Part shown: one piece after another, positions 17,686-41,175 of the stretch
Layout of the letters: each line of letters opens with the position of its first letter
Numbering within the stretch: the stretch's first letter is position 1
Source of the DNA: Fidelibacterota bacterium
GTDB lineage: Bacteria; Fidelibacterota; Marinisomatia; SCGC-AAA003-L08; GCA-2689995
DNA: 51,895 bases
Direction: 5' to 3'
Assembly (NCBI GenBank): GCA_002689995.1
Contig: NZIV01000063.1
Span: 21,010 to 72,904 of the forward strand
Program-made: the position numbers and the translations under genes
The notes under the pieces: model-generated
What the model was told of the DNA's origin: nothing
The model's database searches: none
The model's input: only the letters and a program-made list of their open reading frames with translations

Positions 17686-17916
17686 ATTAAAAAAAGACAA
17701 GAAATAATATTAGATATCACCAATATTAGATGGAATTTAGAAGATGATTCTGATGATAATTTACCCAAAGAATTAGAATTAAAATGGGGAAGTAAGAAAT
17801 GGAGTAAACCCCAAGTCATAAACTGGTTAAGTAAACATTTTAATAATGCAATAGACAATTGTGAAATTGAAAAATTAGTTATTAAAGAAGTTACTGGCTG
17901 AGGAGGCTGTTGTTAA
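17686..17916 (+). CDS. Small hypothetical protein, possible selenoprotein (C-terminal TG-U-GGCC)
   Basis: Open frame KKRQEIILDITNIRWNLEDDSDDNLPKELELKW...IKEVTG, then TGA (17899-17901) GGA GGC TGT TGT TAA. The ATT start is inferred. Confidence 0.5.
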
Positions 17917-17941
17917 TTTTTATAATAGTTTATTATAAAAA
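17917..17941. terminator. AT-rich perfect hairpin (terminator or SECIS-like)
   Basis: TTTTTATAATA-GTT-TATTATAAAAA, 11-bp stem, between convergent genes. Confidence 0.4.
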
Positions 17942-17959
17942 ACATCTAATCTTACTAAA

Positions 17960-18691
17960 CTAATTTTTTTTTGAATTTATTTTTTTTGCTGTAAAAATAC
18001 TAGTTACACCAAACGTTAAATCTTCAACTTTAGCATTAGTAAAACCTTTTGACTCCATTAATTTAATCATTTCCTCTCTGTTTAAAAAATTTTGTACAGA
18101 TTCTGGTAAATAACGATATGCGTCTGATCTTGCGAAAAAAGCACCAATACGAGGAAGTATATACTTAAAGTAGAATTGATAAATTTTACCAAAAAATTTT
18201 GAATGAGGTTCTTGAAATTCTAGAATAGCACATGTACCCCCTGGCTTGAGAACTCTATTAAATTCTACCATTGCTTGTTCATAATGGCCAATATTTCTAA
18301 AACCATATGAAATTGTCAATACATTAAATGAATTATCTTCAAATGGTAAATTTTCACCATCACCTTGAACAAATTTAAATTTATCTGACTTATTTTTAGA
18401 TTTAGCTTTTTTTTGTGCATAGCATACCATCTTGTAAGAATAATCAAGGCCTATAATTTTCACATCATGATGTTTCAAGATAGTAAAACCAACATCACCA
18501 GTACCGGTTGCGACATCTAAAACATCTTGCCCATCTTTAAGATTTAATCTTTTTACTAAAACACGCCTCCAATATAAATCAATTCCTAGACTTAATAAGT
18601 GATTTAAAAAGTCATATTTCCCAGAAATATCATCAAACATTTTCTGCACAAATTGTTTTTTATTTTCACCAGTATGATAAAATTCGTTCAT
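17960..18691 (-). CDS. menG: Demethylmenaquinone methyltransferase MenG/UbiE
   Basis: MFDDISGKYDFLNHLLSLGID, VLDVATGTGD and AYRYLPESV. Confidence 0.93.
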   Translation of the reverse strand: MNEFYHTGENKKQFVQKMFDDISGKYDFLNHLLSLGIDLYWRRVLVKRLNLKDGQDVLDVATGTGDVGFTILKHHDVKIIGLDYSYKMVCYAQKKAKSKNKSDKFKFVQGDGENLPFEDNSFNVLTISYGFRNIGHYEQAMVEFNRVLKPGGTCAILEFQEPHSKFFGKIYQFYFKYILPRIGAFFARSDAYRYLPESVQNFLNREEMIKLMESKGFTNAKVEDLTFGVTSIFTAKKINSKKN

Positions 18692-19207
18692 TTATTAATT
18701 ATTTTCATAAATTTTTTATTTTTAGTATTAAATTTGATTATAAATATATCTTAAAATTTAATTCAAAGTATTTTTTAATCTTAATCAAAATTTAGTTATT
18801 CAATTTAACTACTTTTAAGTTAGCCTTATATTTAAGTAAGAAGCTGTATTATACCATAGATAACTTGCTTAATTAATAAAACTAGTTCTCGGTAAATATT
18901 ATTACTTCACAATCATCCAAATAATTGAATTTAAATTATTCATTATATTATTTTGAATTATCAATCTCAATAAATATTAAATTGATAATAATAATCTAAA
19001 CCTTAAGTTTTTTACAGTCCCAGAAAGCCTATATTTATTAGAATTAAAGATGAATTCATGTTTTAATATTAAAACCCTTACATAACCTCAATAAGATGAA
19101 TATTGTAAGTGTTATTAATAGCATTTATTATAACAAAATTAGTACATTGTTACTTTTCAGATGGGTTAAATTTAAACTTAATTTAATGGTATAGAATAAG
19201 GGTAAAA

Positions 19208-20626
19208 TTGAGCGGAAAAACATTACAATTTAAAGACCATCAGAATATTATTAAAAATAGAATATACTCTGCACTTGAACTTTCAAAAAAATTGAAAAAA
19301 GAAACAATTGTATCTCACACATTCAGAATAGATGCAATTGATATACTACCTATGTTAACTCATCCAGCTGATAGACATTTAACACGAGTATACCTTGAAA
19401 AGCCATCAAATGGATTTTCTATGGCTGGAATGGGATCAACAATTAAAATTGATTTTAATGGTGATATTCAAAAATTTAATGATGAAATTTCTGATATTAA
19501 AAAGAGAATTGTTTATGAAAAAGGACAAGATTATCCTCTTCCTTCTTTTTTAGGTGGACACGCTTTTAATCCTGAAATGGTTGCTGATGAAACTTGGAGA
19601 AACTTTCCAAGAGGTCGATTTGTACTTCCAGAATGTTTAGCAACACAAAATGACGATGGAGCCTGGCTAACAATTTCAACTTTAGTAAATCAAAACGATA
19701 ATCTTCCAATGTTGATAAGCCGCTTTGTTAACTTATGTATACATTATGAAAATAGGATGCCTGTTACTTTGCCTCCAATTTCTAGTTTAGCAGTTGATAA
19801 ATTCAAAGATGTTCCAGATAATGATTCTTATTCTGATACAATCAATAAAATTCTTGAAAGGCTTAAACCTGGCAAGGTAGAGAAAGTTGTCTTATCTCGT
19901 TCTCATCACGTTAAAATTAGTGAAAATTTTAGTGTAATATCTGGAATGCAAGTTTTAAGAAATGCATATCCAAAATGCATGTCATTCTTTTTTTCATTTC
20001 CTAATGAAGGTATATTTTTTGGTTCTACACCTGAAAGCTTAATCCGTTTAAAAAATAAATCAATAGAAACTGAAGCACTTGCAGGGACTATTTCTAGAGG
20101 TAAAAATATGGAAGAAGATAGACTCTTAGCAGAAAAACTTAGATATAGTCATAAAGAATGTGAAGAACATAGATTTGTTTTAGAACAGATTTTACGTAAA
20201 CTAAAACCTATCACTAATCAATTAGATTTTTCTGATTATCCAGAAATCTTAAAATTGAAAAATGTCCAACATTTAAAAACACCAATATTTGGAAAATTAG
20301 AATCAAAGCAACATATTTTAAATATAGTCAAACAATTACATCCAACTCCTGCTGTTGCCGGAACACCTACATCCGATGCAATGAGTATCATTCAAAAACT
20401 TGAAACTCATGACCGTGGTTGGTATAGTGGACCACTTGGTTGGGCTGATGTAAATGGTGATGGAGAATTTTTTGTTGGACTACGTTCTGCATTAGTATCT
20501 GATAATACTGCTCATGTTTATGCCGGAGGTGGTATTGTTGCAGAATCAATAGCTGAACGTGAATGGGATGAAACTAAGTTAAAAATACAGCCAATTATTA
20601 CTGCATTATCTGGTGGACAAATTTAA
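19208..20626 (+). CDS. menF: Isochorismate synthase MenF
   Basis: KVVLSR, GSTPE, ALAGT, LHPTPAVAG and YAGGGIV motifs; adjacent to menD. Confidence 0.9.
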   Translation: MSGKTLQFKDHQNIIKNRIYSALELSKKLKKETIVSHTFRIDAIDILPMLTHPADRHLTRVYLEKPSNGFSMAGMGSTIKIDFNGDIQKFNDEISDIKKRIVYEKGQDYPLPSFLGGHAFNPEMVADETWRNFPRGRFVLPECLATQNDDGAWLTISTLVNQNDNLPMLISRFVNLCIHYENRMPVTLPPISSLAVDKFKDVPDNDSYSDTINKILERLKPGKVEKVVLSRSHHVKISENFSVISGMQVLRNAYPKCMSFFFSFPNEGIFFGSTPESLIRLKNKSIETEALAGTISRGKNMEEDRLLAEKLRYSHKECEEHRFVLEQILRKLKPITNQLDFSDYPEILKLKNVQHLKTPIFGKLESKQHILNIVKQLHPTPAVAGTPTSDAMSIIQKLETHDRGWYSGPLGWADVNGDGEFFVGLRSALVSDNTAHVYAGGGIVAESIAEREWDETKLKIQPIITALSGGQI

Positions 20627-22216
20627 TTGACAAATTTAGAATGGGCAAGAAATACAGCTGAAGCTTTATCAAGATTAGGAGTGAATCATGCTTGTATTTC
20701 TCCTGGTTCTCGTAATACACCTTTAAAAATTGCTTTTATCAATCATAAAAAGATTAACTGTCACTCAATTATTGATGAACGTTCCAGCGGGTTTTTGGCA
20801 TTAGGCCTTGCAAAATCAACTCAAAAACCTGTTGTAATAATTACAACTTCAGGTACAGCAACAGCTAACTTATATCCTGCAATTATTGAATCAAATTTAA
20901 GTCGTATCCCTATTTTAATTTTAACAGCTGATAGACCGCCGCACTTAGTCGGAACGGGTGCAAATCAGACAATTAACCAGCAAGATATATATGGTCAACA
21001 AGTTCGTGGATATATTGATATAGGATTACCACAACATCTTGAACACTTACTCATGATTTTAAAAAAATTCTATTTGCTTGCGGCAGGGTTAAGTCATTTT
21101 GGGGGAAAAATAAATCCTGCTGGACCAGTTCATTTAAACTTTCCATTTGATGAGCCACTTATCGAACAAAAAGATATTCAAAAAGTAAGTAAATTCAATG
21201 AAACTATCTATAATAGATTAAAAATTAATATGACTGGAAATTTAGTCAACCATAATTACGTTCCTGATAATTTGATAAACCAAATACTAACATCAAAAAA
21301 TACATTAATTGTATGTGGAGAAGGGTTAAATGAACAAGAATTAAGTTACTTAGTTAAATTTTCAGAAAAATATCAAATACCAATTTTTGCTGATGTTCTT
21401 TCGAACTTACGTTTTAAATATAAATCCAAATTTATTTTATGTCATTATAATAATTATTTAAATAAATTAAAAAAAGTGGAGTTAATAATCCGTTTTGGTA
21501 AAAAACCAAACTCCAAACTTCTAAATAATTTATTAGATAACAAAAGAAATATTGTAAATTTATTTGAACCTATTGGTAGATTTAATGATGACAGTCAACA
21601 TATTCATCCACATTCAATTTTAGGATTTCCATTATCAGGTGAAAAATTAAATCAATCGAATTTCAATCAAATTTTATTTGAACAAGAGAAAAGATATAAA
21701 TCAAACAATGAACATTATATAAACCATCTTTTAAATTTAATTCCAAAAAATTCTCAACTATTTATAGGCAATTCATTACCTATTAGAGAAATTGATAAAA
21801 TTGCTTCAAATTTAAAAAGAGAAATAAGTGTTTTAGGAAGCCGCGGTGCTAGTGGTATTGATGGTATTATATCAACAGCAATTGGCCTGTCAATTGCAAA
21901 TCCTGATAAAAATACCTTTTTAATAATTGGTGATGTGAGTTTTTTTTATGATTTATCTGCTTTACAATTAGCTAAAAGTTTAGGTGCCAATTTAAAAATT
22001 TTTGTCATAAATAATCGTGGTGGACAAATTTTTAATAAATTGCCTTATGCAAATTTTGGTATTAAAGATTTTAAGAAATTTTGGATTACTAACCCAAATC
22101 TAGATATTAAAAAAACAGCTGATTTATTTAATTTTTATTATTTCAGGGTTACGGATTATTATGAATTAAAAAAAATAAATCTGAAAAATCAACTAATTAC
22201 TGAAATAATAGTTTAA
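20627..22216 (+). CDS. menD: SEPHCHC synthase MenD
   Basis: ISPGSRNTPL, DERSSGFLALG, TSGTATANL, RGASGIDG and the GD...NN ThDP motif. Confidence 0.95.
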   Translation: MTNLEWARNTAEALSRLGVNHACISPGSRNTPLKIAFINHKKINCHSIIDERSSGFLALGLAKSTQKPVVIITTSGTATANLYPAIIESNLSRIPILILTADRPPHLVGTGANQTINQQDIYGQQVRGYIDIGLPQHLEHLLMILKKFYLLAAGLSHFGGKINPAGPVHLNFPFDEPLIEQKDIQKVSKFNETIYNRLKINMTGNLVNHNYVPDNLINQILTSKNTLIVCGEGLNEQELSYLVKFSEKYQIPIFADVLSNLRFKYKSKFILCHYNNYLNKLKKVELIIRFGKKPNSKLLNNLLDNKRNIVNLFEPIGRFNDDSQHIHPHSILGFPLSGEKLNQSNFNQILFEQEKRYKSNNEHYINHLLNLIPKNSQLFIGNSLPIREIDKIASNLKREISVLGSRGASGIDGIISTAIGLSIANPDKNTFLIIGDVSFFYDLSALQLAKSLGANLKIFVINNRGGQIFNKLPYANFGIKDFKKFWITNPNLDIKKTADLFNFYYFRVTDYYELKKINLKNQLITEIIV

Positions 22217-22243
22217 ATATCAAATTTTATTTTTTAATAAAAA

Positions 22244-22873
22244 TTATTTTAAACTCATTTTTAAACCAAATCCAATTAAAATAAATCCAAGTATAATTTC
22301 AATAGGTTTCTGTACTTTCAGAAATTGTAATTTAACTTTTTCATTATTTAAAAAAATTGCTATAATTGAAAACCAAATAAGACAGATTATAGAAATAATT
22401 AGCCCATAAATAATTTGAATAAAAACTGGTGTTTCTATATTAACAATTTGCGTAAATACACTCAAATAAAACATCGTCGCTTTGAAGTTAAGCATATTTG
22501 TAATAAATCCAGATTTAAATGATTCCCAATTTGATAAGCCTATTTTATTAAAAGATATAATATTTAACCTCTGCTGATTGCGGATTGAAGAGATTCCGAG
22601 ATATATCAAATAAACAGACCCAATAATTTTTAAAAATGTAAATATGTAAATTGATTGAGAAATTATTAAAGATATACCAGTTAAGGTATAAAATGTATGT
22701 ATCCATGTTGCACTAGAAATACCAATTGCTGTAAAAATTCCTGACTGCCTTGAACTAGATAAGCTGTTTTTAATAACCACTACAAAATCTGCACCTGGCG
22801 AAATAACAGCTAAAATAGTAATAGTTAGTACTGATAAAAATTCATTCAGAAATGGTAAGAAGTTTTCTAACAT
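22244..22873 (-). CDS. LysE/RhtB-family exporter
   Basis: SPGADF motif, GFITNMLNFKA; six-TM pattern. Confidence 0.9.
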   Translation of the reverse strand: MLENFLPFLNEFLSVLTITILAVISPGADFVVVIKNSLSSSRQSGIFTAIGISSATWIHTFYTLTGISLIISQSIYIFTFLKIIGSVYLIYLGISSIRNQQRLNIISFNKIGLSNWESFKSGFITNMLNFKATMFYLSVFTQIVNIETPVFIQIIYGLIISIICLIWFSIIAIFLNNEKVKLQFLKVQKPIEIILGFILIGFGLKMSLK

Positions 22874-24423
22874 TATTTTTTATAAACCAATTCACCATCA
22901 ACAAAAGTCATTAAAATCTCCGTATTTAAAATATCTCTTTCGCTACAAGTCGTTATATCTTGAGATAATATAGTTAGATCAGCATCATATCCTGGCAAAA
23001 TTTTACCTCTTCGATGTTCATCAAATCCACCATATGCAGCCCATGTTGTAAGCATTTTTAATGCTTCTATTCTACTTACTTTTTCTTGTGCCTGCCAACT
23101 TTCAACATTTGGATTATCAGGCGACTTTCGTGTTACTGCAGAAAAAAATTCCAAAATTGGATTTCCTTTTTCAATAGGACAATCAGAACCTCCCGGAATT
23201 TTTAGTCCAGCATTTAAGAAAGATTTCCATCTCGAAATTCTATGAATCCTTTTGTTTCCAATTCTCTGTTCCATCCAACGCATATCACTTGTACAATGTG
23301 AAGGCTGCATTGAAGGTAAAATATCATTTTTAACAAATTGCGGAATCTCTTCATCTCTTACCATTTGAGCATGCTCAACTCTCCATCTTTTATCATTTTT
23401 TCCACAAAGATATTTTTCATATGTATCCAAAACCAGTTTATTACCTTTGTCACCAATTGCATGGGTACAAAGTTGAAATCCATGATTATAACAATTATTC
23501 GCAAGTTTATCAAACTCATCTTTAGATAGTAAAATTAGACCAAAATTTCCACAATCATCATTGTATTCATCAAAAAGACAAGCACCACGACTTCCTAATG
23601 CTCCATCCATAAATGCTTTTACTGCACGAATAGTATAGCGATTATTTTTTAAAATTCCATTTTGGAACCATGGCTTTAGAAACTCTTTGTCGTTTCCATT
23701 TAACATTCCATAGCAGCGAATTGGAAAATTATCTTGTTTTATTAGACTTTGAATAGAGGTAACAATTAATGAATCTTGCCATGCATCATGAATACCAGTA
23801 ATTCCATTAGAGACTGTTTGTTTTATACCTTTTTCAATAAATCGTTTTACATCATTTTCAGTCTGCTTTGGTATATATTTTTCGATAGAATCCATTGCAT
23901 TATCAATAAATATACAATTATTAATAACCTCTCCACCAGCTGTAAAATCTAAACTTTCTTCAAATCCAGAAATTTGTCGTGCTCTTTTATTTACCCAAAT
24001 CGCATGACCATCAATACGTGTCAAAGAAATAGGATGATCAATACTAATATTATCTAAAACCTTTGCCAAAGGAAACTTATTATTTTCCCATAATGACTGA
24101 TCCCAACCTCTACCTAAGATCCAAGTTCCCTTTGGAAAATTTGATAAATTTTTACGAATTAAATTTACTATTTTTTGCGGAGAATCAATTCCTACAAGAT
24201 TAAAATTTTCTAAAAACTTGCCTAAGTTTGAAAGATGATAATGTGCATCAATAAAACCAGGTACAATTGTTGAACCTTTAAGGTCAATAGTTTTTGCAGA
24301 CAATAAATTCTGATTTAAGCCTTCTATTTTTCCATCTTTTATAATTATACTCTCGACTTTAGGCATATCTGGATGCAATGTAATAACATTCGCATTTATT
24401 AATTTTAGAGGTGAAATTTTCAT
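22873..24423 (-). CDS. Amidohydrolase (YtcJ-like, Amidohydro_3)
   Basis: PGFIDAHYH, HAIGD, RVEHAQ and GGSDCP motifs. Confidence 0.92.
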   Translation of the reverse strand: MKISPLKLINANVITLHPDMPKVESIIIKDGKIEGLNQNLLSAKTIDLKGSTIVPGFIDAHYHLSNLGKFLENFNLVGIDSPQKIVNLIRKNLSNFPKGTWILGRGWDQSLWENNKFPLAKVLDNISIDHPISLTRIDGHAIWVNKRARQISGFEESLDFTAGGEVINNCIFIDNAMDSIEKYIPKQTENDVKRFIEKGIKQTVSNGITGIHDAWQDSLIVTSIQSLIKQDNFPIRCYGMLNGNDKEFLKPWFQNGILKNNRYTIRAVKAFMDGALGSRGACLFDEYNDDCGNFGLILLSKDEFDKLANNCYNHGFQLCTHAIGDKGNKLVLDTYEKYLCGKNDKRWRVEHAQMVRDEEIPQFVKNDILPSMQPSHCTSDMRWMEQRIGNKRIHRISRWKSFLNAGLKIPGGSDCPIEKGNPILEFFSAVTRKSPDNPNVESWQAQEKVSRIEALKMLTTWAAYGGFDEHRRGKILPGYDADLTILSQDITTCSERDILNTEILMTFVDGELVYKK

Positions 24424-24624: not shown

Positions 24625-26175
24625 ATGTTGAAAAAAATCACTATTATAATTACAATTCTTTCTCTCGGCTTATCATCAAACCTATCAGAAGTTGAAAGAG
24701 AAATGTTAAGTAATGAGGCTATGCAGAAAATGATGGCAGAAATTTTTAAAGAAGCAATGAAAGTAAAAAAGGATTTCCAATCCAATCAAATCAGGCAAGA
24801 GCTAATTGAAAATCTATCTTCTACTGCACCTAGAGAAGAATTCATTATTAATGCAGATTTGTCAACTGAACTATCTGAATCAAATCCTTCAGCTACCATA
24901 TATGTATCTACTGATAACCAAGAAACATGGATAAATTCAGAAAATATTGGCCCATTAAATGAGAATGGGTTTGAAACAACTTGGGGTACAACAGTTAATA
25001 CTGTCGATAGTGATGTTGTAAATTGGTATCTTTCTGGACTAATTAATTCTACTGCATTAGGCTTTGATTATGGAGAAATTATCGTTTCTCAATCTCCTCA
25101 AAATGTAAATAATCAATGGCCCCCAAATAATAATCTATATGCAACCCTAGTAAACGATGATACAGGTGATACAGACTCTGAACAAGATATTATAAGTCTT
25201 TCTGGTACCTATAGGTCTTCTGGAGAAGATATAGAAGAGTTATATGTTAAACTATCACTCAATAGCAGTTGCTGCAATGAAGGTTCAATATTTGGTCCTT
25301 GGTATCTCTATGGTGTAGGAATTGTAAATCCCGAATCAGAAGATGCAGTTGCCTATGCAATAGGCTATGCAGATGGTGGTTTTCTTGCTGGTAGTCAATT
25401 ATATCCTGGTCTATTAAAATTAACAGGAGATTTTGCTAGTGGCGAAATTGCAGGATTTGAGTATATAACACCTGATATAAATTACTCAACCGCTGGCAAT
25501 GATTTACAAGTATCTGTATTGTTAGATTATATTACTAATGATAGTCAATTTGGTCTATGGCCAAATTCATTACAAGGTTTAATTGTTTTAGGTGTGACTG
25601 TTTCTGCAGATCTTAGTTTTAGTACAAATATTCATGACCAAACAAATCCGGGTTTATTTTTACTTTCATCACAATATCAAAATGGAAATGTAGAGCCAAA
25701 TATCACAGATGGTGCCTATGATGATGAGACAATGACTCTTTCTGTAAATTACCAAGATGATGATGGTAATTTACCATGGTTTAAATCTGGTCAAATCTGC
25801 TATTCTGGAACTGATAATTGTTTTATTAACTTAAACTTAACTCCAAATAGTCATACTTATTTAGAAGGTGTTACATATTCAGGCTCCATTATTGATGAAG
25901 AAATTTCATCAGGTGATTATGACATTAAATTTTGGTTTGAAGATGACGATGAAATTGGTGTGCCACAAATCGTAATCCCTGTTACTATTGGTAGCTCTTG
26001 TGGAACTTTAGGCGACATAAATGGCGATAATAATATAAATGTTGTAGACGTTGTTACTATTGTTAATTATGTTCTAAATAATGATACTTCAGATTCATGC
26101 GCAGATCTTTCTAATGATGGACTAATTAATGTTGTAGATATTGTACAATTAGTAAATCTTATTCTTGGAGATTAA
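24625..26175 (+). CDS. Secreted acidic protein with C-terminal dockerin type I-like domain
   Basis: Signal peptide; GDINGDNNINVVDVV...ADLSNDGLINVVDIV duplicated Ca-binding repeats. Confidence 0.85.
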   Translation: MLKKITIIITILSLGLSSNLSEVEREMLSNEAMQKMMAEIFKEAMKVKKDFQSNQIRQELIENLSSTAPREEFIINADLSTELSESNPSATIYVSTDNQETWINSENIGPLNENGFETTWGTTVNTVDSDVVNWYLSGLINSTALGFDYGEIIVSQSPQNVNNQWPPNNNLYATLVNDDTGDTDSEQDIISLSGTYRSSGEDIEELYVKLSLNSSCCNEGSIFGPWYLYGVGIVNPESEDAVAYAIGYADGGFLAGSQLYPGLLKLTGDFASGEIAGFEYITPDINYSTAGNDLQVSVLLDYITNDSQFGLWPNSLQGLIVLGVTVSADLSFSTNIHDQTNPGLFLLSSQYQNGNVEPNITDGAYDDETMTLSVNYQDDDGNLPWFKSGQICYSGTDNCFINLNLTPNSHTYLEGVTYSGSIIDEEISSGDYDIKFWFEDDDEIGVPQIVIPVTIGSSCGTLGDINGDNNINVVDVVTIVNYVLNNDTSDSCADLSNDGLINVVDIVQLVNLILGD

Positions 26176-26220
26176 TTCAATTTAAAATTCTAATTGCTTC
26201 AATGTAGTTAATAAGTTCAT

Positions 26221-28330: not shown

Positions 28331-28332
28331 TA

Positions 28333-31460: not shown

Positions 31461-31462
31461 CT

Positions 31463-32419
31463 ATGAATTATAGAAAACTTGGAAATTCTGGTTTAAAACT
31501 TAGTGAACTATCATTTGGTTCTTGGGTCACTTTTGGTAATCAAATAGATGTAAATTTAGCATCTGAATTAATTAAAACAGCCTATGATGCAGGAGTTAAT
31601 TTTTTTGATAATGCAGAGGCATATGCAGCTGGAGAGTCAGAAAAGATAATGGGCGATGCTTTAAAAAAACTTAAAATACCTAGAGATACATGGTGTATAT
31701 CTAGTAAAGTATTTTGGGGTGGAAATCTACCCACTCAAATAGGACTAAGTGCCAAGCATATACATGACTGCTGTAATAATGCACTTAAAAGATTAAAAGT
31801 TGAATATTTAGATTTATATTTCTGTCATAGACCAGACCCTGATACACCAATTGAAGAAACTGTTCGAGCTATGAACAACTTGATTAAACAAGGAAAAATT
31901 CTATATTGGGGTACATCTGAATGGTCGGCAAATCAGATTGAAGAAGCATTCAAAATAGCCTCAAATAACTATCTAACACCACCAACCATGGAGCAACCTC
32001 AATATAATTTATTAAATCGTGATAGATTTGAAAATGAATATAAAACTATTTTTGAAAAATATTCAATAGGAACAACTACTTGGTCTCCACTTTGTTCTGG
32101 TATTTTAACTGGAAAGTATAAAAATGGAATCCCAAAAAATGCAAGATTTTCTATCGAATCCTATCAATGGCTTTGGGAAAAATTCAAAGAAGATGGTATA
32201 GAAAATCAATTTACTAAAATTCAAAAGTTTTGTGAAATGGCTAGTAAATTAAATTTAACACCTGCACAACTGGCAATAAAGTGGTGCTTAAATAATTCTA
32301 ACGTAAGCACAGTGATTTTAGGTGCATCAAAGAAATCACAACTAGAAGAAAATCTCAAAATTTATGATTTAAATAGTTCTGATATTGATTTTAGCGAAGT
32401 AGAAATTTGTTTTAATTAG
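31463..32419 (+). CDS. Aldo/keto reductase (Kv-beta-like)
   Basis: MNYRKLGNSGLKLSELSFGSW, FFDNAEAY, DLYFCHRPD and WGTSEW. Confidence 0.93.
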   Translation: MNYRKLGNSGLKLSELSFGSWVTFGNQIDVNLASELIKTAYDAGVNFFDNAEAYAAGESEKIMGDALKKLKIPRDTWCISSKVFWGGNLPTQIGLSAKHIHDCCNNALKRLKVEYLDLYFCHRPDPDTPIEETVRAMNNLIKQGKILYWGTSEWSANQIEEAFKIASNNYLTPPTMEQPQYNLLNRDRFENEYKTIFEKYSIGTTTWSPLCSGILTGKYKNGIPKNARFSIESYQWLWEKFKEDGIENQFTKIQKFCEMASKLNLTPAQLAIKWCLNNSNVSTVILGASKKSQLEENLKIYDLNSSDIDFSEVEICFN

Positions 32420-33425
32420 CCTTTTTAAATTTTTCTAATTGAGTCTGATAATATTCATCTTTCGGATTCAATTCAATTGCACGTTTAATGGTTTTTATAG
32501 CATTTTGAATATCACCAAGCAGCCATTCAACCTCAGCCTGTGTATCTAAAACCATTGGTTTAGAATTATCATCTGCTAATTCGACACCTATCTTTGCTTT
32601 TATCAGAGCATCATCTAAATTTTGTTTTAACTCTGTCATTCTCCAAGCATAACTATTCATAACACTTGAACTTTTAGTAAATTTTTCACTCATTTCAAAT
32701 AAAGTTGAAATTTCTTTGGTTGTATCTTTTTCTACAATATAATATTTTGCTATCATTTGGTATGCAGATATACATAAAGGCGATTCTGAGTAATCCTTAA
32801 TGAAATTTTGTAGACCTGTTATATCGCTATTCTCCCAACCTAATTTTGCCATTGCAAATTTCGCAGATATAATTTCATCCTCCATTTCTTCTGGAGCATT
32901 TTTTAAAAATTGAGTGTAATATTTTTCTGAAATTTCAGACTCACCTCTAGCAGAATATTTTTCACCTAATTTAAAAATTATACTATAATCATTCGGACTT
33001 TCTATTAATTTATTTTCCAACACAGAAATAGTATTTTCACCTTCTAGGATTTCTTTAACCATGGGCAAATATTGATCTGGAGGTGCATAACCTATTATAC
33101 GATCTATTTCATTACCATGATTATCTATAAATACAACTGTAGGAAAAATACGAACTTTATATTGGCTTACAATTTGACTTCCCTCACGTTGTCCAGCATT
33201 AATTTTTATACTATTAAATTTATCAGTGAGAGTTAAAAATGAATTATCTAAAAATGTATCAGCTTCCAGCCGAGCACACCATCCTCAGCTATCGGTATAA
33301 AAGTCTAGCATTATTAACTTGCTGCCTGTAATATTTTTCAAATCTTCTAAACTTCCTTTATACCAAGGATAAGTTGGATTAGTATTACATGCAAAAATAA
33401 ACAAAATAAATATTAGTCTTTTCAA
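32412..33425 (-). CDS. Lipoprotein thioredoxin-fold + TPR protein; predicted selenoprotein (Sec47, UGWC)
   Basis: AGGAG RBS, TTG start, lipobox FIFA-C, then MLDFYTDS-TGA-GWCARLEADTF...FPTVVFID...EIDRIIGY running in frame into the listed 218-aa TPR ORF; 337 aa in total. Confidence 0.88.
33255..33278 (-). promoter_or_regulatory. SECIS-like hairpin
   Basis: TGTG-C-TCGGCT-GGA-AGCTGA-TACA; loop G lies 18 nt after the UGA at 33285-33287; locally GC-rich in an AT-rich genome. Confidence 0.65.
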
Positions 33426-33435
33426 AATTATTCTC

Positions 33436-34377: not shown

Positions 34378-34892
34378 ACGGATAATTTTAATTTATTTAA
34401 ATAATTAATATACATTTCCACTATTTTTTCATGTGACGTAAAAGCTAATTGTGGTAATTGATTTAATGGAAACAATTTTGCGTCATCTGCATCATCCCCT
34501 GCAACCATATCTTTAAAGTCAGAAACATCCATTAAAAAGGCCAATAACAAAATGTCTCCATGTAAAGAATTAAAATGACTAGTATAGCCTAATTGACAGT
34601 TCACACGGCCATCTAAATTTGTCTCTTCTTTTAATTCTCTAATTGCAGCCTGATCTGGTGTTTCATTTAATTCTATGAATCCTCCTGGCAAACCCCATAG
34701 CCCTTTTCCAGGCTCAACGGCTCTTTTAACTAATAAAATGTTTTTTGATTCAGGACAAATTAATGTGGAAGTTGGTTTAGGATTTTCATAGTGAATACTA
34801 TTACAATTTAAACAATGATATCGTAGACCACCATCAATAAAACCATAAATATTTTTTTTACCACAATTAGAACAGTATTCAAGATATGACAT
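34374..34892 (-). CDS. Nudix hydrolase with N-terminal zinc ribbon
   Basis: YCSNCG...CLNC...YENP and the Nudix box GGFIELNETPDQAAIRELKEETNL. Confidence 0.92.
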   Translation of the reverse strand: MSYLEYCSNCGKKNIYGFIDGGLRYHCLNCNSIHYENPKPTSTLICPESKNILLVKRAVEPGKGLWGLPGGFIELNETPDQAAIRELKEETNLDGRVNCQLGYTSHFNSLHGDILLLAFLMDVSDFKDMVAGDDADDAKLFPLNQLPQLAFTSHEKIVEMYINYLNKLKLSV

Positions 34893-34966
34893 GATATAAT
34901 TTCGGATTATTTAGTAAAGGAATCCAACTTGGAATATGATTAAAAAAACACCTATTTTTATCTACT

Positions 34967-35890
34967 ATGAAAAATCAAAATTCAATTCTTACAGTAGGAT
35001 CTATTGCGCTTGATAACCTTGAGACTATAAAAGGTAAAAAGGAAAAAATGCTTGGAGGATCAGCAACATATTTTGCAATGGCAGCATCATTGTTTGTAGA
35101 GGTTCGTGTTGTTGGTGTTGTTGGTACAGACTTTACGGATGAAGGCCATAATATTTTTGACTCTAATAATATTGACAAAAAAAACTTACAAGTCATTGAT
35201 GGAAAAACATTCTCATGGGGAGGGAAATACAGTAATGATTTTTCTACGCGAAAAACACTTTTTACAGATTTAGGTGTTTTTGAAAATTTTAAACCAAAAA
35301 TTGATAAAGAGCATATTAATACTCCAATAGTATTTTTAGGTAATATTCATCCTGATTTACAAATGGATGTAATTAACCAAATGAATGAAGATTGCTTAAT
35401 CATAACTGACACAATGAATCTTTGGATAGATATTAGTTTAAATAGTCTTTTTAATGTAATCTCAAAAACTGATATTTTACTTCTCAATAATGAGGAAGCT
35501 GAGCAATTAACTGGAGAATCTAATTTAAGTAAAGCAGGAGAAATACTAATTTCAAAAGGGCCTAAAACTGTAGTTATAAAAAAAGGTGCTAATGGATCAA
35601 TGGTTTGTGGCGAAATCGAAATTGACAATATACCTGTATTCCCTGGTATTGATGTATTTGATCCTACGGGAGCTGGTGATAGTTTCGCTGGTGGTTTTTG
35701 TGGTTATTTAGCAATAAACGGGAGAGATAATATTATTGATGCAATTATTTACGGTTCAGCAGTTGCTTCATATACTGTATCTCAGTTTAGTGTTAATTGG
35801 TTAAAAAATATTAATATTGATAATATTAAAGATAGGGCTAAAACTATTTCTAGTTTATTAGCAGAAAAAAATAATCAATCGAAAGGATAA
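34967..35890 (+). CDS. PfkB-family sugar/nucleoside kinase
   Basis: GGSATY N-terminal motif and the DPTGAGDSFAGG signature. Confidence 0.93.
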   Translation: MKNQNSILTVGSIALDNLETIKGKKEKMLGGSATYFAMAASLFVEVRVVGVVGTDFTDEGHNIFDSNNIDKKNLQVIDGKTFSWGGKYSNDFSTRKTLFTDLGVFENFKPKIDKEHINTPIVFLGNIHPDLQMDVINQMNEDCLIITDTMNLWIDISLNSLFNVISKTDILLLNNEEAEQLTGESNLSKAGEILISKGPKTVVIKKGANGSMVCGEIEIDNIPVFPGIDVFDPTGAGDSFAGGFCGYLAINGRDNIIDAIIYGSAVASYTVSQFSVNWLKNINIDNIKDRAKTISSLLAEKNNQSKG

Positions 35891-35893
35891 CAA

Positions 35894-36946
35894 ATGTTAA
35901 AAAGATTTTCCATATTAATTATTACAGTTATAATACTTTTTACAGGATGTAAAAGTCCTGAGTTTACTTCTGCATTGATGTATGTAAATGAAAATAACCT
36001 AGGAAAAGCTGAAGAATTTTTCAAAAAAGCACTTATTGTTGAACCAGATAATGCTCTAGTACCATATCTTTATGCAAGAGATGTACTTTTACCGGAGGAA
36101 CGTTGGAATGAAATGGCCAATATGTTTAACCGTGCAAATGAAATTAATCCTGATGCAAATTTAGAAAAACCAATTATAATTGATGGAAATATTTACTCAA
36201 CAGTCTCAGAAGGAGCTGAAGCCTATAGAGAACAAGAATGGGGTAAAATATTCAATAAAGCGGTAGAGGTTAAAGATGATAAAAAAAATGCTATTGAATT
36301 CTTAAATCTCGCAATAAAAGTATACCCATCAAAAAGTAATACATATGGTTATTTAGCCTCTGTTTACTTAGATATGGGAGACTTAAAATCTGCAAAAAAT
36401 GCTGCACAGAATGGATATGAAAAAAATCCAGAAGATATTTTAATTCTTCAAGTCTTAGCTAGTATAGCACAAAAAAATGAAAAATTAGACTTAGCTGTTG
36501 ATTACATGGAATTAGCTTTAGGAATAGCTGAAGATAAAGGGACAATATTAAGAAAATTAATTTATATTTTTATAGATATGGAAGAATTTGAAACAGCAAT
36601 TGAATATTCAATGAAAGCAATTAGAGAATATCCAAATGATCCAGATATTTATTACAATGTAGGTGTACTTTATCAAAAAATGGCAATTCAATTATTTGAG
36701 CCAGCAAGAACTAAGTTTGTTGAAGAGTCAAATAAAGATAAATGGGATAAAGATATAATGAATGATATCTATGAAGATTTCAGAAAAGCTCGCTCTTTTT
36801 GCGTAGAAGCGAAAGATTATTTTTTAGATTCTACTGATTTAGAAGGTGATGAAGACGGTTCAACACAAGCTGTTAGTGAAATGAAAAAAACAATTAATCA
36901 ATTAGATGAAATCTTTATTCCAGCAGTAAGAGATATGATGGATTAG
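35894..36946 (+). CDS. TPR-repeat lipoprotein
   Basis: Lipobox FTGC; multiple TPR-like helices (e.g. YPNDPDIYYNVGVLY). Confidence 0.85.
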   Translation: MLKRFSILIITVIILFTGCKSPEFTSALMYVNENNLGKAEEFFKKALIVEPDNALVPYLYARDVLLPEERWNEMANMFNRANEINPDANLEKPIIIDGNIYSTVSEGAEAYREQEWGKIFNKAVEVKDDKKNAIEFLNLAIKVYPSKSNTYGYLASVYLDMGDLKSAKNAAQNGYEKNPEDILILQVLASIAQKNEKLDLAVDYMELALGIAEDKGTILRKLIYIFIDMEEFETAIEYSMKAIREYPNDPDIYYNVGVLYQKMAIQLFEPARTKFVEESNKDKWDKDIMNDIYEDFRKARSFCVEAKDYFLDSTDLEGDEDGSTQAVSEMKKTINQLDEIFIPAVRDMMD

Positions 36947-36947
36947 T

Positions 36948-38444
36948 ATGAAATTATTTCTTACAATTTTATTTTTTTCACTTTTAATTCCAGCAAGTTC
37001 TTATAATATGGATTTAAAGTCTATAACTATGTATGAAAATAGTCAGTTTAATTATGGTATTTCAGATGTTTGGGGCTATACTGATGAATATGGAAATGAA
37101 TACGCAATTGTAGGTTATCTAAATGGTACTAAAATTTTAGATGTAAGTACCAACCCTAATAACCCCATTGAAGTAATGGATATTCCAGGACCATCAGATA
37201 ATGATTATTATTTTCATAGAGATTATAAAACATTAAATGATGTTCTATATACAGTATGTGAAATGACGGGTGGTGACATGGGCATGCAGGTTATTGATTT
37301 ATCCCCTCTCCCTGAAAATCTACCAATTCAATACCCTACATATAATGAAATTGGAACCTCACATAACTTGTGGGTTGACCCTAATGGATACGCATATATT
37401 GAACATAGTTACGGCGATGCTATAAATATAGCAGATTTATCAGATCCTCTAAATCCAATGGAAGTTGGAAGTTTTGGAAGTATTGGTCCTAATACACATG
37501 ATATTTTTACTCGTAATGGTATTGCTTATGTTTCAAATGGCTGGAGTGAAGATTTTTTAATATGTGATATAAATGATTTTAATAATATCGAAGTGCTTGC
37601 AACAATTTCTGAAGGTGTTTCAGGCTATGCTCATAATGCATGGCTATCTGAAGATAGTAGCCACTTAATAACTACTGAAGAAACCGAAGATCGTACAGTT
37701 AAAATTTGGAACATTGAAAATTTATCTAATATTTCATTGGTAGGTGAATATCTTGCCGAAAATGGATTAGCACATAATGTTCATGTGAAAGGAAGCCTAG
37801 TTTATATTTCACATTATACTACTGGTATACGTATTATTGATATATTTGATCCAACCTATCCTGTAGAAGTTGCAGGCTGGGATACTTATCCGCAAAATGA
37901 TGGTGATGGTTATTATGGTTGTTGGGGAGCTTTTCCGTACACGGAAAATGGATATATATATGCAAGTGATATGCAAAATGGACTTTATGTATTAAGTTTT
38001 GAACCTATCTATGCTGGCTGGATAATTGGAAATATTTTTGATAATACTGGAAATCCACTACCAGATAATGCTGAAATTTTTTCAAATTTAGATGGAAGAA
38101 AATTTTCTATCCAAGAAAATGGATTATATCACATTGGAATGCCAGCTGGTCTGCACTCATTTGATGTATATTTAGGTAATGTAAACTTAGGAGGATTTAA
38201 TGCTAATTTTATTGAACACAATACTATAAATAATAATATTTATCTGACAGGTGAAATTTTGCAAGGTGACCCATCCGGTGATGGACTTATAAATGTATTA
38301 GATATTCTAATGACAATAAATGTTATTACTGGTCAAAATATGTTTAGTGAAATTGAATTTGTATCTGCTGATTTAAATCAAGATAATAATATTAATATTT
38401 TAGATATTGTACTTATTGTTAACATTATACTTGGAAATAATTAG
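36948..38444 (+). CDS. Secreted choice-of-anchor B / LVIVD-repeat protein with C-terminal dockerin-like domain
   Basis: SDVWGY, HRDYKT, HNLW, HDIF, HNAWLSED, HNVHV and WGAFPY motifs; duplicated dockerin-like Ca-binding repeats. Confidence 0.87.
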   Translation: MKLFLTILFFSLLIPASSYNMDLKSITMYENSQFNYGISDVWGYTDEYGNEYAIVGYLNGTKILDVSTNPNNPIEVMDIPGPSDNDYYFHRDYKTLNDVLYTVCEMTGGDMGMQVIDLSPLPENLPIQYPTYNEIGTSHNLWVDPNGYAYIEHSYGDAINIADLSDPLNPMEVGSFGSIGPNTHDIFTRNGIAYVSNGWSEDFLICDINDFNNIEVLATISEGVSGYAHNAWLSEDSSHLITTEETEDRTVKIWNIENLSNISLVGEYLAENGLAHNVHVKGSLVYISHYTTGIRIIDIFDPTYPVEVAGWDTYPQNDGDGYYGCWGAFPYTENGYIYASDMQNGLYVLSFEPIYAGWIIGNIFDNTGNPLPDNAEIFSNLDGRKFSIQENGLYHIGMPAGLHSFDVYLGNVNLGGFNANFIEHNTINNNIYLTGEILQGDPSGDGLINVLDILMTINVITGQNMFSEIEFVSADLNQDNNINILDIVLIVNIILGNN

Positions 38445-39351
38445 TTAATACTGGCTCTACTAGTTTAAATTTAGCTTCATTTATCCAATTAATTTGAACT
38501 CCTCTACGCTCCATTCTTCTAAAAAAAGTCATTTGCCGTTTTGAAAATTGATGAATTGCCGTATTAAGCTTTTGAAACATATCGTTATAATTCAAATCAC
38601 CTTTAAGATATTTTCCAATAAATTTATATTCTAAGCCAAAATATTCTAACCTCTCTTCAGATAGCCCATTGTTTAATAAACTCTTTACCTCATCTATCAT
38701 GCCATTATCAAGTCTCAATTTTAACCGATGAGTAATACTCTTTCTGACTTTCTTTCTATCTGGAGCGATTCCGATTACACAATAATTAAATTTTTGAAAT
38801 TGTCTAATTTCTATTTCTTGTTTTTTTATTTCTTTACTTAATCCTATTTCGATTGCTCTAATTGTCCGTTTTTTTGAAGACAAATCGGTGATATTATGAA
38901 GTTTTAAATTTAAATTTTTTAATATATCAATTAATACTTCATGACTTTCTTTTTCAAGGTTATATCGTAAATAAACGTTAGGTGGAACTTCTGACATATC
39001 ATAATTTAATAAGACTGATTCGATATAAAGTCCTGTGCCACCACATAAAATTGGGAGAGAATAATTTTTTAAAATTTCTTTTTGAGCCCTTCTAAAATCA
39101 TTTTGAAAATGAAAAACACTATAATTTTGCTCTGGCTGTAAAATATCAATTAAATGATATGGAATATGTTTTCCATTTATTTTATATTCTTTCAAATCCT
39201 TACCAGTTCCAATATCCATACCATTATATATTTGCCTAGAATCAGCTGAAATAATTTCCCCTTTATACTTTGCAGCTATTTTAACAGATAAAGATGTTTT
39301 TCCTGAGGCTGTTGGTCCAATAATTACTAAAAGATTTGAGTTTTTATACAT
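38425..39351 (-). CDS. miaA: tRNA dimethylallyltransferase MiaA
   Basis: GPTASGKT, IISADSRQIY...MDIGTGK, GGTGLY and KRQMTFFR. Confidence 0.96.
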   Translation of the reverse strand: MYKNSNLLVIIGPTASGKTSLSVKIAAKYKGEIISADSRQIYNGMDIGTGKDLKEYKINGKHIPYHLIDILQPEQNYSVFHFQNDFRRAQKEILKNYSLPILCGGTGLYIESVLLNYDMSEVPPNVYLRYNLEKESHEVLIDILKNLNLKLHNITDLSSKKRTIRAIEIGLSKEIKKQEIEIRQFQKFNYCVIGIAPDRKKVRKSITHRLKLRLDNGMIDEVKSLLNNGLSEERLEYFGLEYKFIGKYLKGDLNYNDMFQKLNTAIHQFSKRQMTFFRRMERRGVQINWINEAKFKLVEPVLTNYFQV

Positions 39352-39427
39352 AATGATTATTAATTTGTTTATGATATCATTTATTTTCTTGTTTAAATTT
39401 ATGTTATTTTATTAAAAAGGAAAATAA

Positions 39428-40105
39428 ATGAAAAAAATATACTTACATCTGTTTATTTTTATTTTATCTAGTTTCGCTATATCACAATTGGAATATTCTT
39501 TAGAAGATGTTAACACTACTTCTTCAACTTATAATTTAAATGTTTGGTATCCAGAATACTCAGAATTTATTACATTACATTATTTTTCAACGCAAGGTTG
39601 AGCTGGCTGAACAGCTACTTTTGTGCAGTTGCACAATTTTCAAAATGAATTAAGAAATACTGATGGATTTACTAATATCGTCTTTATTGCAGTAGGACAA
39701 ACAAATATTAGTAGTTTTAACGAAAACTTTTGCTCTGATTCAGACCTTCCACTTGTTATGGATCCTTACCCTGAACTTCCTTTGAGAGAAATGTTTAATG
39801 CTGCGCATAAAGAAGTTGTTATTGTAGATTCAGAATCTAATATCCTTGGTAGGATAACTTTAAATGGAAATTTAAATAGCAACGAAAAGGATTATATAAG
39901 AAACATTATTAGTGAAAATTATCCTGGAGATTCTATCATTGGAGATATAAATGGTGATGAGATAATAAATGTTTTAGATGTTATACTTGTAGTTAACATA
40001 GTTTTAGGAGCAATTACTGATTTAGATAGTGCAGATGTAAATCAAGATGGTTTAATCAATGTTCTTGATATAATTAACATTGTTAACATTATAATAAATA
40101 CTTAG
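39428..40105 (+). CDS. Secreted thioredoxin-like (redoxin) protein with dockerin; predicted double selenoprotein (U58-A-G-U61)
   Basis: ATG 39428 and signal peptide, then YSLEDVNTTSST...LHYFSTQG-TGA-GCT-GGC-TGA-TATFVQLHNFQNEL in frame with the listed 160-aa ORF; 225 aa; C-terminal dockerin. Confidence 0.85.
39621..39636 (+). promoter_or_regulatory. SECIS-like hairpin
   Basis: TTGTGC-AGTT-GCACAA. The loop GU lies 18 nt after the second UGA and 27 nt after the first; it resembles the apical stem of the E. coli fdhF SECIS (GUUGCAGGUCUGCAC). Confidence 0.7.
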
Positions 40106-40110
40106 TTTTT

Positions 40111-41175
40111 ATGCGTTTTTTACTTCTAATAATTTTTTTTATATGTATTCCTTTCACTCAAACCCAAGAATGTATAAATATGCCTCTTAATTCGATCATA
40201 AGTACTTATAGCATCGGAGATACTATTAGTATAGATGACCAATTACGACCATATAATGTGTGCTATTCATCTGAAAATAATAGTAATAATACATTTAGGC
40301 TTGCAGATTTTAATGGCAATTTAAATGGAGGCCATTATCGAGTAACTTTAATAAGTATGAATGCATCATGGTGACCGGCATGTTATGGATACATCAGTAT
40401 GATGGATCAAATTCTTGAATTTATAAATATAAACAATCAAATAGAGTTTTTAGTTAGTTTTGATGATGGTACAGGACCTAACTCAACATATACATGCAAT
40501 GAATGGGGTAATTTATATAATGAACTTGGCGAATATGGAAATCAACCAATAATTTTAAATGGTGATGATGACTATAATCAAGATGGAGACCCTGATCATC
40601 ATTTATGGAATTCATTTGCAGGAAATTCTTATTCTGCATACGTAATGTTAGATCATCATATGGTTGTTAGATATTTGTTTGATATTCCAGATTTATATCA
40701 ATTTCAATACAACTACTTAACATCACTCATGAATGCGATGAATGGTTGCACAGAACAATCTGCATGTAATTATAGTCATACTGCTATATACAACGATGGC
40801 ACATGTCAATTTGATCAAGAATGTGATGAAAATTTGAACCCTTGTTCGAACTTTTCATCTCATTTAGATTGTATATCTGAATCAAATTGCTTCTGGATGG
40901 GTGATCATTGTATGGAAGGCTCAAATTGTACAGACCCTATCGCAGAAAACTTCAATCCAATAGCAGAAACAACAGGAATCAATGATAATATAGAGTGTAT
41001 TTACTCTCCTTTTATAGAATTTGGCTGTATTTATCCAAGTGCAGTAAATTTTAATAGTGAAGCTCGTATTGATGATGGAACTTGCCAGTTTAATTATAAT
41101 GATGTGAACGAAGACAATATCGTCGATATTTTAGATATTATTATTATACTTTCTGAAATAATAGAGCTTGAATAA
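40111..41175 (+). CDS. Secreted thioredoxin-like protein with Cys-rich repeats and dockerin-like tail; predicted selenoprotein (Sec88, WUPAC)
   Basis: The listed 87-aa and 258-aa ORFs are in one frame, joined by ISMNASW-TGA-PACYGYISMMDQ. FRLADFNG...VTLISM-x-ASW-U-xx-C is a redoxin active-site context; 354 aa. Confidence 0.88.
40388..40408 (+). promoter_or_regulatory. SECIS-like hairpin
   Basis: GAT-A-CATCA-GTA-TGATG-G-ATC; loop G lies 23 nt after the UGA at 40372-40374. Confidence 0.55.
40744..41085 (+). repeat. Three degenerate GCTDxxAxN(Y/F)...DGxC protein repeats
   Basis: GCTEQSACNYSHTAIYNDGTC, NCTDPIAENFNPIA...C and GCIYPSAVNFNSEARIDDGTC. Confidence 0.7.

Follow-up and report, generated by a model that had tools for sequence, protein, structure and literature searches.

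Selenocysteine genes of three functional units in a SAR406 bacterium whose selenoproteome is largely exported and often dockerin-tagged

Four genes on a stretch of 51,895 nucleotides from an uncultured marine bacterium of the SAR406/Marinimicrobia group (contig NZIV01000063.1, positions 21,010 to 72,904, or C34:21010-72904 in our numbering; the whole stretch is termed the window) hold in-frame UGA codons which, judged from their conservation, are genuine selenocysteine (Sec) codons. Their products are P0001, a lipoprotein thioredoxin; P0002, a redoxin with a Sec-x-x-Sec centre and a C-terminal dockerin; P0003, an exported thioredoxin-fold protein; and P0004, a small cytoplasmic protein (Table 1). 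We consider it likely that all four are Sec genes served by the SelA/SelB/SelD/tRNA-Sec route, and that they fall into three unrelated functional units for which roles are proposed below. The initial annotation of this DNA had counted up to five in-frame UGAs in these genes, all within UxxC or UxxU motifs, and read-through translation together with conservation bears out all five. It had also joined the four genes into one exported, dockerin-linked system, and this part did not survive: P0004 appears to sit in a metal module, P0001 is apparently a stand-alone lipoprotein and the dockerin is not specific to Sec proteins. The dockerin link itself is real; it mirrors a mostly extracytoplasmic selenoproteome and a general tag of the secretome, not a dedicated selenoprotein machine.

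Reading of UGA as selenocysteine

Translation table 11 splits three of the genes (32412..33068; 39623..40105; 40111..40374 plus 40399..41175), and reading through TGA gives single frames of 337 (P0001), 225 (P0002) and 354 (P0003) amino acids. A six-frame coding test over the 2.9-Mb genome found only 24 TGA positions with best-frame coding on both sides; four of these are the sites in P0001, P0002 (two) and P0003, and the coding sequence flanking the TGAs of the window goes beyond chance. This comparison replaced a codon-usage log-likelihood scan of TGA frames, which yielded 87 candidates, most of them false, and failed to pick up P0001 and P0003, and a within-genome BLAST for Sec/Cys paralogues was swamped by duplicated contigs and off-frame paralogue matches and was used for single genes only. 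Elsewhere UGA acts as an ordinary stop, as the initial annotation had stated with fliP, flhB, flhG and ccmD as its examples: TGA terminates 8 of the 49 open reading frames (ORFs) in the window, including those named (378-1127, 2184-3245, 6297-7223 and 49067-49396 are among the eight), and 146 of 983 long ORFs genome-wide. Since TGA thus ends about 15% of ordinary genes, a global reassignment of UGA (codes 4 or 25) is ruled out.

The window was compared with 40 genomes of the same order and, in wider searches, with 301 genomes of the phylum, and the UGAs proved to be kept among orthologues at a functional residue. Both TGAs of P0002 are retained in 12/12 aligned loci as G-U-[AG]-G-U-T in a codon-level alignment, and every full-length match among the order relatives has two. 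Over the phylum, all 34 matches to the P0002 redoxin domain carry TGA, 14 of them with two, all in the window's own order, and 20 with one. W-U-x-x-C is likewise kept in 12/12 aligned P0003 loci, every close match in the order has one TGA, and of the paralogues in the same genome one has Cys and one Sec at this column. Of the 41 genomes compared within the order, 33 have P0001; 24 of 28 full-length matches in relatives have one TGA, and the aligned Sec position holds U in 12/14 sequences and Cys (C-V-W-C) in two. Matches to P0004 occur in 12 of the 301 genomes. The TGA is present in 5/5 Sec-type loci, window included, and the four same-order homologues have an ATG start and a terminal [S/G]-U-G-G-C-C. 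Eight matches from other orders lack TGA; seven of these are full-length with Cys-rich tails of the form ...SGCSCCAGGCSCC, e.g. S-G-C-S-C-C-A-G-G-C-S-C-C, and the eighth runs off its contig. The Cys-tailed forms of other orders therefore make a Sec/Cys pair, and Cys homologues at the Sec position are now at hand for P0001, P0003 and P0004. Contigs from the DNA runs of two other studies span P0002 and P0003 with 8 and 21 substitutions, none of them at the three TGAs, and no indels; all sequencing runs that hold this stretch are marine or seawater metagenomes.

The UGAs would be read by the standard bacterial route, with a hairpin resembling the selenocysteine insertion sequence (SECIS) just downstream of each. 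The P0002 hairpin is a convincing candidate: compensatory changes fall at 3 of its 6 pairs among 12 sequences, 98.6% of 72 cells are paired against at most 50% in slid controls, and none of 500 shuffles reached its covariation score. Those of P0004 and P0001 are plausible. In one relative (L067) the next gene follows the P0004 hairpin directly, so that it is not obviously a terminator, and the P0001 hairpin folds as a single sequence at -10.6 kcal/mol, with one of the four pairs of its consensus CGGC/GCCG stem compensatory. The P0003 hairpin is a weak candidate.

The genome also holds the machinery. The gene selA reaches 501 bits (cut-off 268), selB adjoins it directly downstream, selD (375 bits) has an in-frame TGA of its own, and tRNA-Sec is found at 65.3 bits (gathering score 47). 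The initial annotation had named the absence of selA, selB or selC as what would overturn it; selA, selB, selD and tRNA-Sec were all found, selB in two pieces. Its two frames (C63:22870-24725) are separated by a frameshift in an A-run near C63:23274-23289, and selB is unbroken in all five relatives tested (343-377 bits); the frameshift is probably an assembly error.

Three functional units

P0003 starts 5 bases past the stop of P0002, and the orthologues of the two lie adjacent in eight other genomes (G004, G007, G016, G022, G028, G031, G036 and G038); from this gene order the pair appears to be a conserved two-gene operon. Orthologues also occur in two other families of the order at 44-66% identity. 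Two 151-base contigs of the metatranscriptomic run X18 lie inside P0002 downstream of the UGAs, and three contigs of run X16, RNA by our guess, lie inside P0003; they match window 39614-40006 and 40567-41168 at 98-100% identity and are no proof of transcription.

The P0002 redoxin reaches 77.8 bits over residues 22-156 against the NCBIfam model NF053656 (redoxin_TUGYCR), below the curated cut-off of 100, and is best described as a divergent relative of that family by sequence. Its dockerin passes as type I with both D-x-N-x-D-G repeats present, and it is kept in 13/13 aligned homologues. There are four further relatives of this redoxin in the same genome, three of them near the NF053656 cut-off and one above it (C2:112377-113570, 138.7 bits, with a weak SelP_N similarity of 19.2 bits). 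At C41:19704-20909 a lipoprotein TUGYCR-type redoxin has U-N-T-C, and its frame runs past a second TGA into a repeat protein; this TGA is either a stop or another Sec codon.

P0003 matches no Pfam or NCBIfam family, the Pfam dockerin included, so that of the two Sec proteins initially said to carry dockerin-like modules, P0002 has a full dockerin and P0003 one degenerate half-repeat. A profile of 12 P0003 homologues matched the thioredoxin-family PDB chains 4evm and 4hqs across the W-C-x-x-C active site (E 2.3e-5 and 4.1e-5), chains which we take to be surface-exposed lipoproteins of Streptococcus pneumoniae. The C-terminal half is modular among homologues: Cys-rich repeats lead into a dockerin, half or full, or into TSP3, a dockerin and a type IX secretion system (T9SS) sorting domain together, and the window copy keeps its single half-repeat where some orthologues have the full dockerin. 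The Cys-rich units (40750-41090 in the window, and in homologues) read C-T-D-x-x-A-C-N-Y ... D-D-G-[ST]-C-x-[FY] and have no Pfam match. GOS_C/Omp28_seleno (NF045500) was considered as the family of P0003 and rejected, P0003 having no hit to it; in the paralogue C33:57911-59476 only the TSP3/dockerin part matches the C-terminal part of NF045500, at 61 bits against a cut-off of 200.

P0002 and P0003 would act as exported thioredoxin-fold thiol/selenol oxidoreductases, P0003 as a W-U-x-x-C reductase, and the Sec-x-x-Sec centre of P0002 would cycle through a diselenide. A DsbD-type membrane protein is encoded in the genome (DsbD_TM, 95.6 bits) and could supply the electrons.

P0001 forms the second unit. 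It matches Pfam Thioredoxin_2 (PF13098) at 46.3 bits against a cut-off of 27, and its matches to the tetratricopeptide repeat (TPR) remain under their cut-offs; the TPR part may serve this lipoprotein thioredoxin as a substrate-binding domain. In family f5 of the order there are hardly any dockerin matches, yet the P0001 TGA is kept in 3 of 4 full-length matches, and Sec use is therefore independent of dockerins. Its distribution suggests a stand-alone lipoprotein kept order-wide.

The third unit is that of P0004, a protein with no Pfam or NCBIfam family match. At 12 of 13 loci of this family its gene immediately follows a MerC-family gene, and for the thirteenth no MerC-like gene was shown by the filters used. 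In the window this neighbour passes the gathering cut-off of PF03203, and a Fur-family gene, which stands divergent from it, recurs in two relatives; of the three loci behind this count, two cover the same site of a single genome. From this linkage P0004 is most readily seen as part of a MerC/Fur-like metal module. Its flexible S-G-U-G-G-C-C tail may accept a soft metal ion such as Hg(II) that the MerC-like protein hands over from its own Cys-Cys tail. Beside the Fur-like regulator and the MerC-like gene, at 13657-16498, lie a TonB-dependent receptor and a His/Asp-rich lipoprotein, a neighbourhood that suggests a metal-uptake island and not a classical mer operon.

In the alignment, the initiator Met of the P0004 homologues, encoded by ATG, falls on the ATT at 17686. 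When 1.84 billion representative proteins were searched exhaustively with a profile, 35 relatives of P0004 emerged at E <= 0.001. Among the 22 inspected, 14 end in ...[S/G]-G where Sec-type homologues have the Sec codon, and three are Cys-tailed; a TGA presumably follows right after those 14 library protein ends. A word-index homologue search returned one near-identical protein, its index not reaching the family. The predicted structure (mean predicted local distance difference test score, pLDDT, 79.6) is beta-beta-alpha-beta with a disordered tail, and we assign no fold because, of the 320 PDB matches of the model at E <= 10, not one reached E <= 0.001.

Table 1. Features of the window and the exported Sec proteins of the genome (window positions unless a contig is given; SECIS, selenocysteine insertion sequence; T9SS, type IX secretion system; aa, amino acids).
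Feature	Position	Strand	Basis or remark
P0002, exported redoxin-dockerin double selenoprotein, 225 aa	39428..40105	+	signal peptide by eye; G-U-A-G-U-T active site
P0002, two Sec codons, G-U-A-G-U	39599-39601, 39608-39610	+	translation and alignment
P0002, SECIS-like hairpin	39621..39636	+	6-bp stem, invariant AGUU loop
P0002, type I dockerin, residues 172-218	39941..40081	+	PF00404, 28.1 bits against 22.9
P0003, exported TlpA/Etrx-like thioredoxin-fold selenoprotein, 354 aa	40111..41175	+	W-U-P-A-C; Cys-rich repeats; one degenerate dockerin half-repeat
P0003, Sec codon	40372-40374	+	translation and alignment
P0003, weak SECIS-like hairpin	40392..40404	+	5 pairs, 1 compensatory
P0001, lipoprotein thioredoxin with C-terminal TPR, 337 aa	32412..33425	-	S-U-G-W-C; lipobox ...FIFAC by eye
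P0001, Sec codon (33287-33285) and downstream GC-rich hairpin	33253..33287	-	fold and alignment
P0004, small cytoplasmic protein, 76 aa, ending T-G-U-G-G-C-C-COOH	17686..17916	+	probable ATT start; Sec codon 17899-17901
P0004, AU-rich hairpin with GUU loop, candidate 3' SECIS	17917..17943	+	8 pairs, 2 compensatory, 5 sequences
MerC-family membrane protein ending ...E-C-C, directly upstream of P0004	17225..17563	+	Pfam MerC (PF03203), 55.1 bits against 27.6
Fur-family regulator, divergent from MerC-like gene	16673..17062	-	Pfam FUR, 34.3 bits against 23.1
Secreted protein, C-terminal dockerin, no Sec	24625..26175	+	Dockerin_1, 25.3 bits against 22.9
Secreted choice-of-anchor B/LVIVD protein, C-terminal dockerin, no Sec	36948..38444	+	Dockerin_1, 33.6 bits; TIGR04312, 183.9 bits
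Exported Sec proteins P0001, P0002 and P0003, paralogue of P0002, paralogue of P0003	window; C80; C33:57911
Exported Sec proteins, three TUGYCR-type redoxins	C6/C31; C41; C2:112377
Exported Sec protein, DsbA-like			U-P-Y-C
Exported Sec protein, UshA-like			C-G-U; NF041198, 207 bits, under cut-off 275
Candidate exported Sec protein, TonB-dependent receptor	C68:39291-42485		G-C-G-U near C-terminus
Candidate exported Sec protein, secreted beta-helix protein	C2:58655-59548		C-P-G-U; dockerin-like tail

Exported selenoproteins, dockerins and cohesins

The selenoproteome extends beyond the window. In the source assembly (2.91 Mb, 87 contigs, 29.5% G+C, completeness 100%, contamination 7.3%) the six-frame test, paralogue comparison and family scans together give about 15 distinct Sec genes. 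Three are cytoplasmic, namely selD, a BCP-type peroxiredoxin (T-P-G-U, 195 bits) and P0004, and about 12 are exported, all export signals and signal peptides being judged by eye. The three export signals initially reported were seen again on P0001, P0002 and P0003, and P0004 has none. The beta-helix protein and the TonB-dependent receptor among the exported candidates have no selenoprotein family match. Large near-identical stretches on separate contigs (C18/C87, C6/C31, C58/C80, C13/C32) point to assembly redundancy, which fits the 7.3% contamination, and some Sec and dockerin genes are counted twice.

Five of the exported Sec proteins bear a Pfam-level dockerin and two more are dockerin-like by eye, so the suggestion of a largely exported, often dockerin-tagged selenoproteome held up for the whole genome. 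By family, the dockerin is found in 3 of 7 exported Sec families. It is also shared with secreted proteins that lack Sec, the two at 24625 and 36948 included, as had been claimed. Genome-wide there are 84 dockerin-bearing open frames over the cut-off, of which 56 carry it at the very C-terminal end and lack a T9SS tail, and 16 combine a dockerin with a T9SS tail, beside 81 T9SS sorting domains in the genome. Because these 84 frames are of all kinds, the dockerin serves the lineage as a general label of secreted proteins and is not Sec-specific.

Dockerins bind cohesins on scaffoldins, and the genome-wide search for cohesin-domain proteins that had been proposed was successful: Pfam Cohesin lies above its cut-off of 24.1 in two large proteins, on contigs C59 (43.8 bits) and C74 (26.2 bits). 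The former (C59:2623-7914) is scaffoldin-like, with at least 1764 residues, its N-terminus being cut off by the contig end, and about six cohesin-like modules by eye; the latter has 2291 residues. A third protein, C7:50418-51176, has 253 residues with a signal peptide, one cohesin-like module at a sub-threshold 19.3 bits and a T9SS tail, and may serve dockerin proteins as a small anchor. Each of the three proteins ends in a T9SS sorting domain, which makes a surface anchor possible, and the dockerin of P0002 would tether it to cohesin modules of such large proteins. Complex prediction for this dockerin with one C59 module scored 0.32, against 0.03 for the best of three controls, with runs agreeing in at least 96% of contacts and partner pLDDT at least 86. 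Of 80 solved complexes 58 reach the pass mark used, as do 2 of 110 mismatched pairs, but passing scores of at most 0.60, as here, include only 7 of the 80 solved complexes and both passing mismatches. The score may also reflect memory, because cohesin-dockerin complexes have already been solved. We take the prediction as weak support for binding of the P0002 dockerin to the C59 cohesin.

The exported Sec redoxins may stay in the periplasm, the dockerin-like module serving Ca-dependent folding or the binding of partners before T9SS export, at the periplasmic side or the outer membrane. This is possible, though rather doubtful. No T9SS sorting domain is found on P0002 and 56 other dockerin-terminal frames, which keeps a periplasmic location as a live rival, and thioredoxins of the TlpA/ResA/DsbE type are classically periplasmic; a DsbD-type electron importer is present, and a cytochrome c maturation cluster, its gene identities assigned by eye, lies at window 47058-51880. 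The T9SS-tailed cohesin proteins, on the other hand, should end up outside the cell, and the PDB chains nearest to P0003 presumably belong to surface-exposed lipoproteins.

Alternatively, the Sec proteins could be parts of a dedicated, non-cellulosomal cohesin-dockerin assembly at the surface, in effect a selenium redox machine on scaffoldins. This would suit the dockerin or dockerin-like tails on 5-7 of about 12 exported Sec proteins, the dockerin of all 13 P0002 homologues, the T9SS-tailed cohesin proteins of at least 1764, 2291 and 253 residues, and the weakly supportive docking score. We find it distinctly unlikely, since dockerins sit on 84 frames of all kinds and in only three of the seven exported Sec families, P0001 keeps its TGA in the nearly dockerin-free family f5, P0004 is cytoplasmic, no Sec gene stands beside a cohesin gene in the loci examined, and dockerin proteins that lack a T9SS tail leave the passage across the outer membrane unexplained.

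The preferred reading, four Sec genes in three units, has its own difficulties, which should be set against it together. The selB gene is frameshifted in this assembly, and Sec insertion is here a prediction from sequence. The 301 phylum genomes hold no Cys counterpart of P0002 (0 of 34 matches lack TGA), so that the classical mark of a Sec/Cys pair is lacking for that protein. The P0001 stem has only 4 consensus pairs, and that of P0003 is weak and its sequence is under protein constraint as well. The P0004 frame in the window has no ATG, GTG or TTG, and for want of a canonical start this copy could be inactive. The operon is patchy, P0002/P0003 orthologues being missing from the two genomes of the same genus. 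With respect to docking, P0002 and most dockerin proteins have no T9SS tail and may be periplasmic, and the C59 contig is short (7.9 kb) and its 33% GC exceeds the 29.5% of the genome, whose bin has 7.3% contamination.

Some of these points, namely the broken selB, the missing start of P0004 and the reliance on sequence, would also suit the notion that the UGAs are not Sec codons at all and reflect pseudogenes, assembly errors, Cys or Trp readthrough or plain termination, but this is extremely improbable: the TGAs take the place of the catalytic Cys and persist across genomes at 30-66% identity with flanks that evolve as coding sequence, compensatory hairpins follow them, the same TGAs recur in two independent samples, TGA ends about 15% of ordinary genes, and the rest of the Sec machinery is complete, with selB intact in 5/5 relatives.

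Meaning and comparison with known systems

In the dark ocean SAR406 is one of the bacterial groups of highest abundance, and bacterial selenoproteins are usually pictured as mostly cytoplasmic or respiratory enzymes. The roughly 12 exported genes among about 15 Sec genes run against this picture and bear on marine selenium demand. Because standard gene callers break off every one of these genes at UGA, inventories of secretome, redox and metal-handling functions for the phylum are systematically incomplete. P0002, with no Cys counterpart in the 301 genomes, is a clean candidate for chemistry beyond cysteine, and the MerC-linked U-G-G-C-C tail may offer a simple, testable case of selenium in metal capture. 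Taken further, SAR406 might keep most of its selenoproteome outside the cytoplasm, dock selenol and diselenide enzymes on T9SS-tailed cohesin scaffolds at its surface and also use a MerC-linked Sec family of about 75 residues that accepts imported mercury-like metals, a picture which is unlikely to hold as a whole. If true, the docked enzymes would amount to an extracellular layer of selenium redox chemistry in the ocean interior, with dissolved organic matter, metals or oxidants as its targets.

With cellulosomes the system shares type I dockerins on many secreted proteins and cohesins on large multi-module proteins. It differs in that the host is diderm, the cohesin proteins end in T9SS domains and not in SLH or sortase anchors, and the cargo includes redoxins, a beta-helix protein and a choice-of-anchor B protein; binding is only predicted here.

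Selenoprotein L (SelL) resembles P0002 in its thioredoxin/peroxiredoxin-like fold with Sec-x-x-Sec and its occurrence in aquatic organisms. Shchedrina and colleagues reportedly described the UxxU diselenide redox chemistry of SelL in 2007, and to our knowledge SelL has no signal peptide or dockerin. P0002 is no member of it by sequence, reaching only 12.5 bits against a cut-off of 120 (NF040769). From the TUGYCR family NF053656, whose model it matches below the cut-off, P0002 differs in having Q-G-U-A-G-U-T in place of T-U-G-Y-C-R, two Sec residues and a C-terminal dockerin. The GOS Prx-like 2 family, to which NF053656 is similar by its description, stems from an analysis of ocean reads (Zhang and Gladyshev, 2008; PMC2398784) and, according to the part of that paper available to us, has low similarity to the N-terminal region of Selenoprotein P and some UxxU members. 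As far as this description goes, both it and the NF053656 relatives are marine with UxxU variants, and a weak SelP_N similarity is common to Prx-like 2 and the protein at C2:112377-113570; P0002 is thus likened to Prx-like 2 by family description only, not by sequences. The initial annotation had called such proteins invisible to standard annotation. Standard callers do cut the genes at UGA, but the redoxin is related to NF053656 and UxxU members of Prx-like 2 had, in the accessible text, been reported in 2008 (PMC2398784).

P0003 and P0001 share with the TlpA/ResA/Etrx types, and with the UxxC thiol:disulfide interchange selenoproteins (PF13098) listed in Table 1 of a review (PMC13188914, available in part), export and a Sec at the first Cys of CxxC. 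P0003 differs from the former in lacking a Pfam or NCBIfam family and in its Cys-rich repeats and dockerin/T9SS modules, and P0001 in its TPR fusion. For P0004 the closest comparison is with SaoC (NF040734) and DUF466 KCU-star, which the accessible part of a preprint by Haft (10.1101/2022.07.06.499078) describes as small Cys-Cys-COOH or Cys-Sec-COOH proteins beside transporters, its authors knowing of no selenoprotein in mercury resistance. By that account P0004 is alike in its small size, Cys-Cys-COOH end, Sec in the tail, position beside a transporter and candidate SECIS past the stop. It is unlike them in that SaoC has a signal peptide and P0004 has none, that its Sec lies four residues before the terminal Cys-Cys, and that its partner is MerC-like. 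There is no sequence match, SaoC NF040734 and KCU-star NF033934 being absent from the P0004 NCBIfam matches at E up to 0.1, and we regard the proteins as probable analogues by function, not homologues.

Literature searches found nothing linking dockerins with SAR406/Marinimicrobia and, among the papers listed for selenocysteine together with dockerin, none that treats this topic in its title or abstract; among the matches listed for selenoprotein and Marinimicrobia, neither term stood in title or abstract. The words secreted, signal peptide, periplasm and dockerin are all absent from the accessible text of the review (PMC13188914). The NCBIfam GOS_C model NF045500 does end in a region that matches TSP3/dockerin sequence of this genome. 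Thioredoxin-fold UxxC and UxxU selenoproteins of marine metagenomes are already known, as far as the available parts of the sources go (PMC2398784, PMC13188914), and TUGYCR is modelled in NCBIfam. What appears to be new here is the MerC-linked U-G-G-C-C family, the operon of an obligate Sec-x-x-Sec dockerin redoxin, and the genome-wide count of Sec genes.

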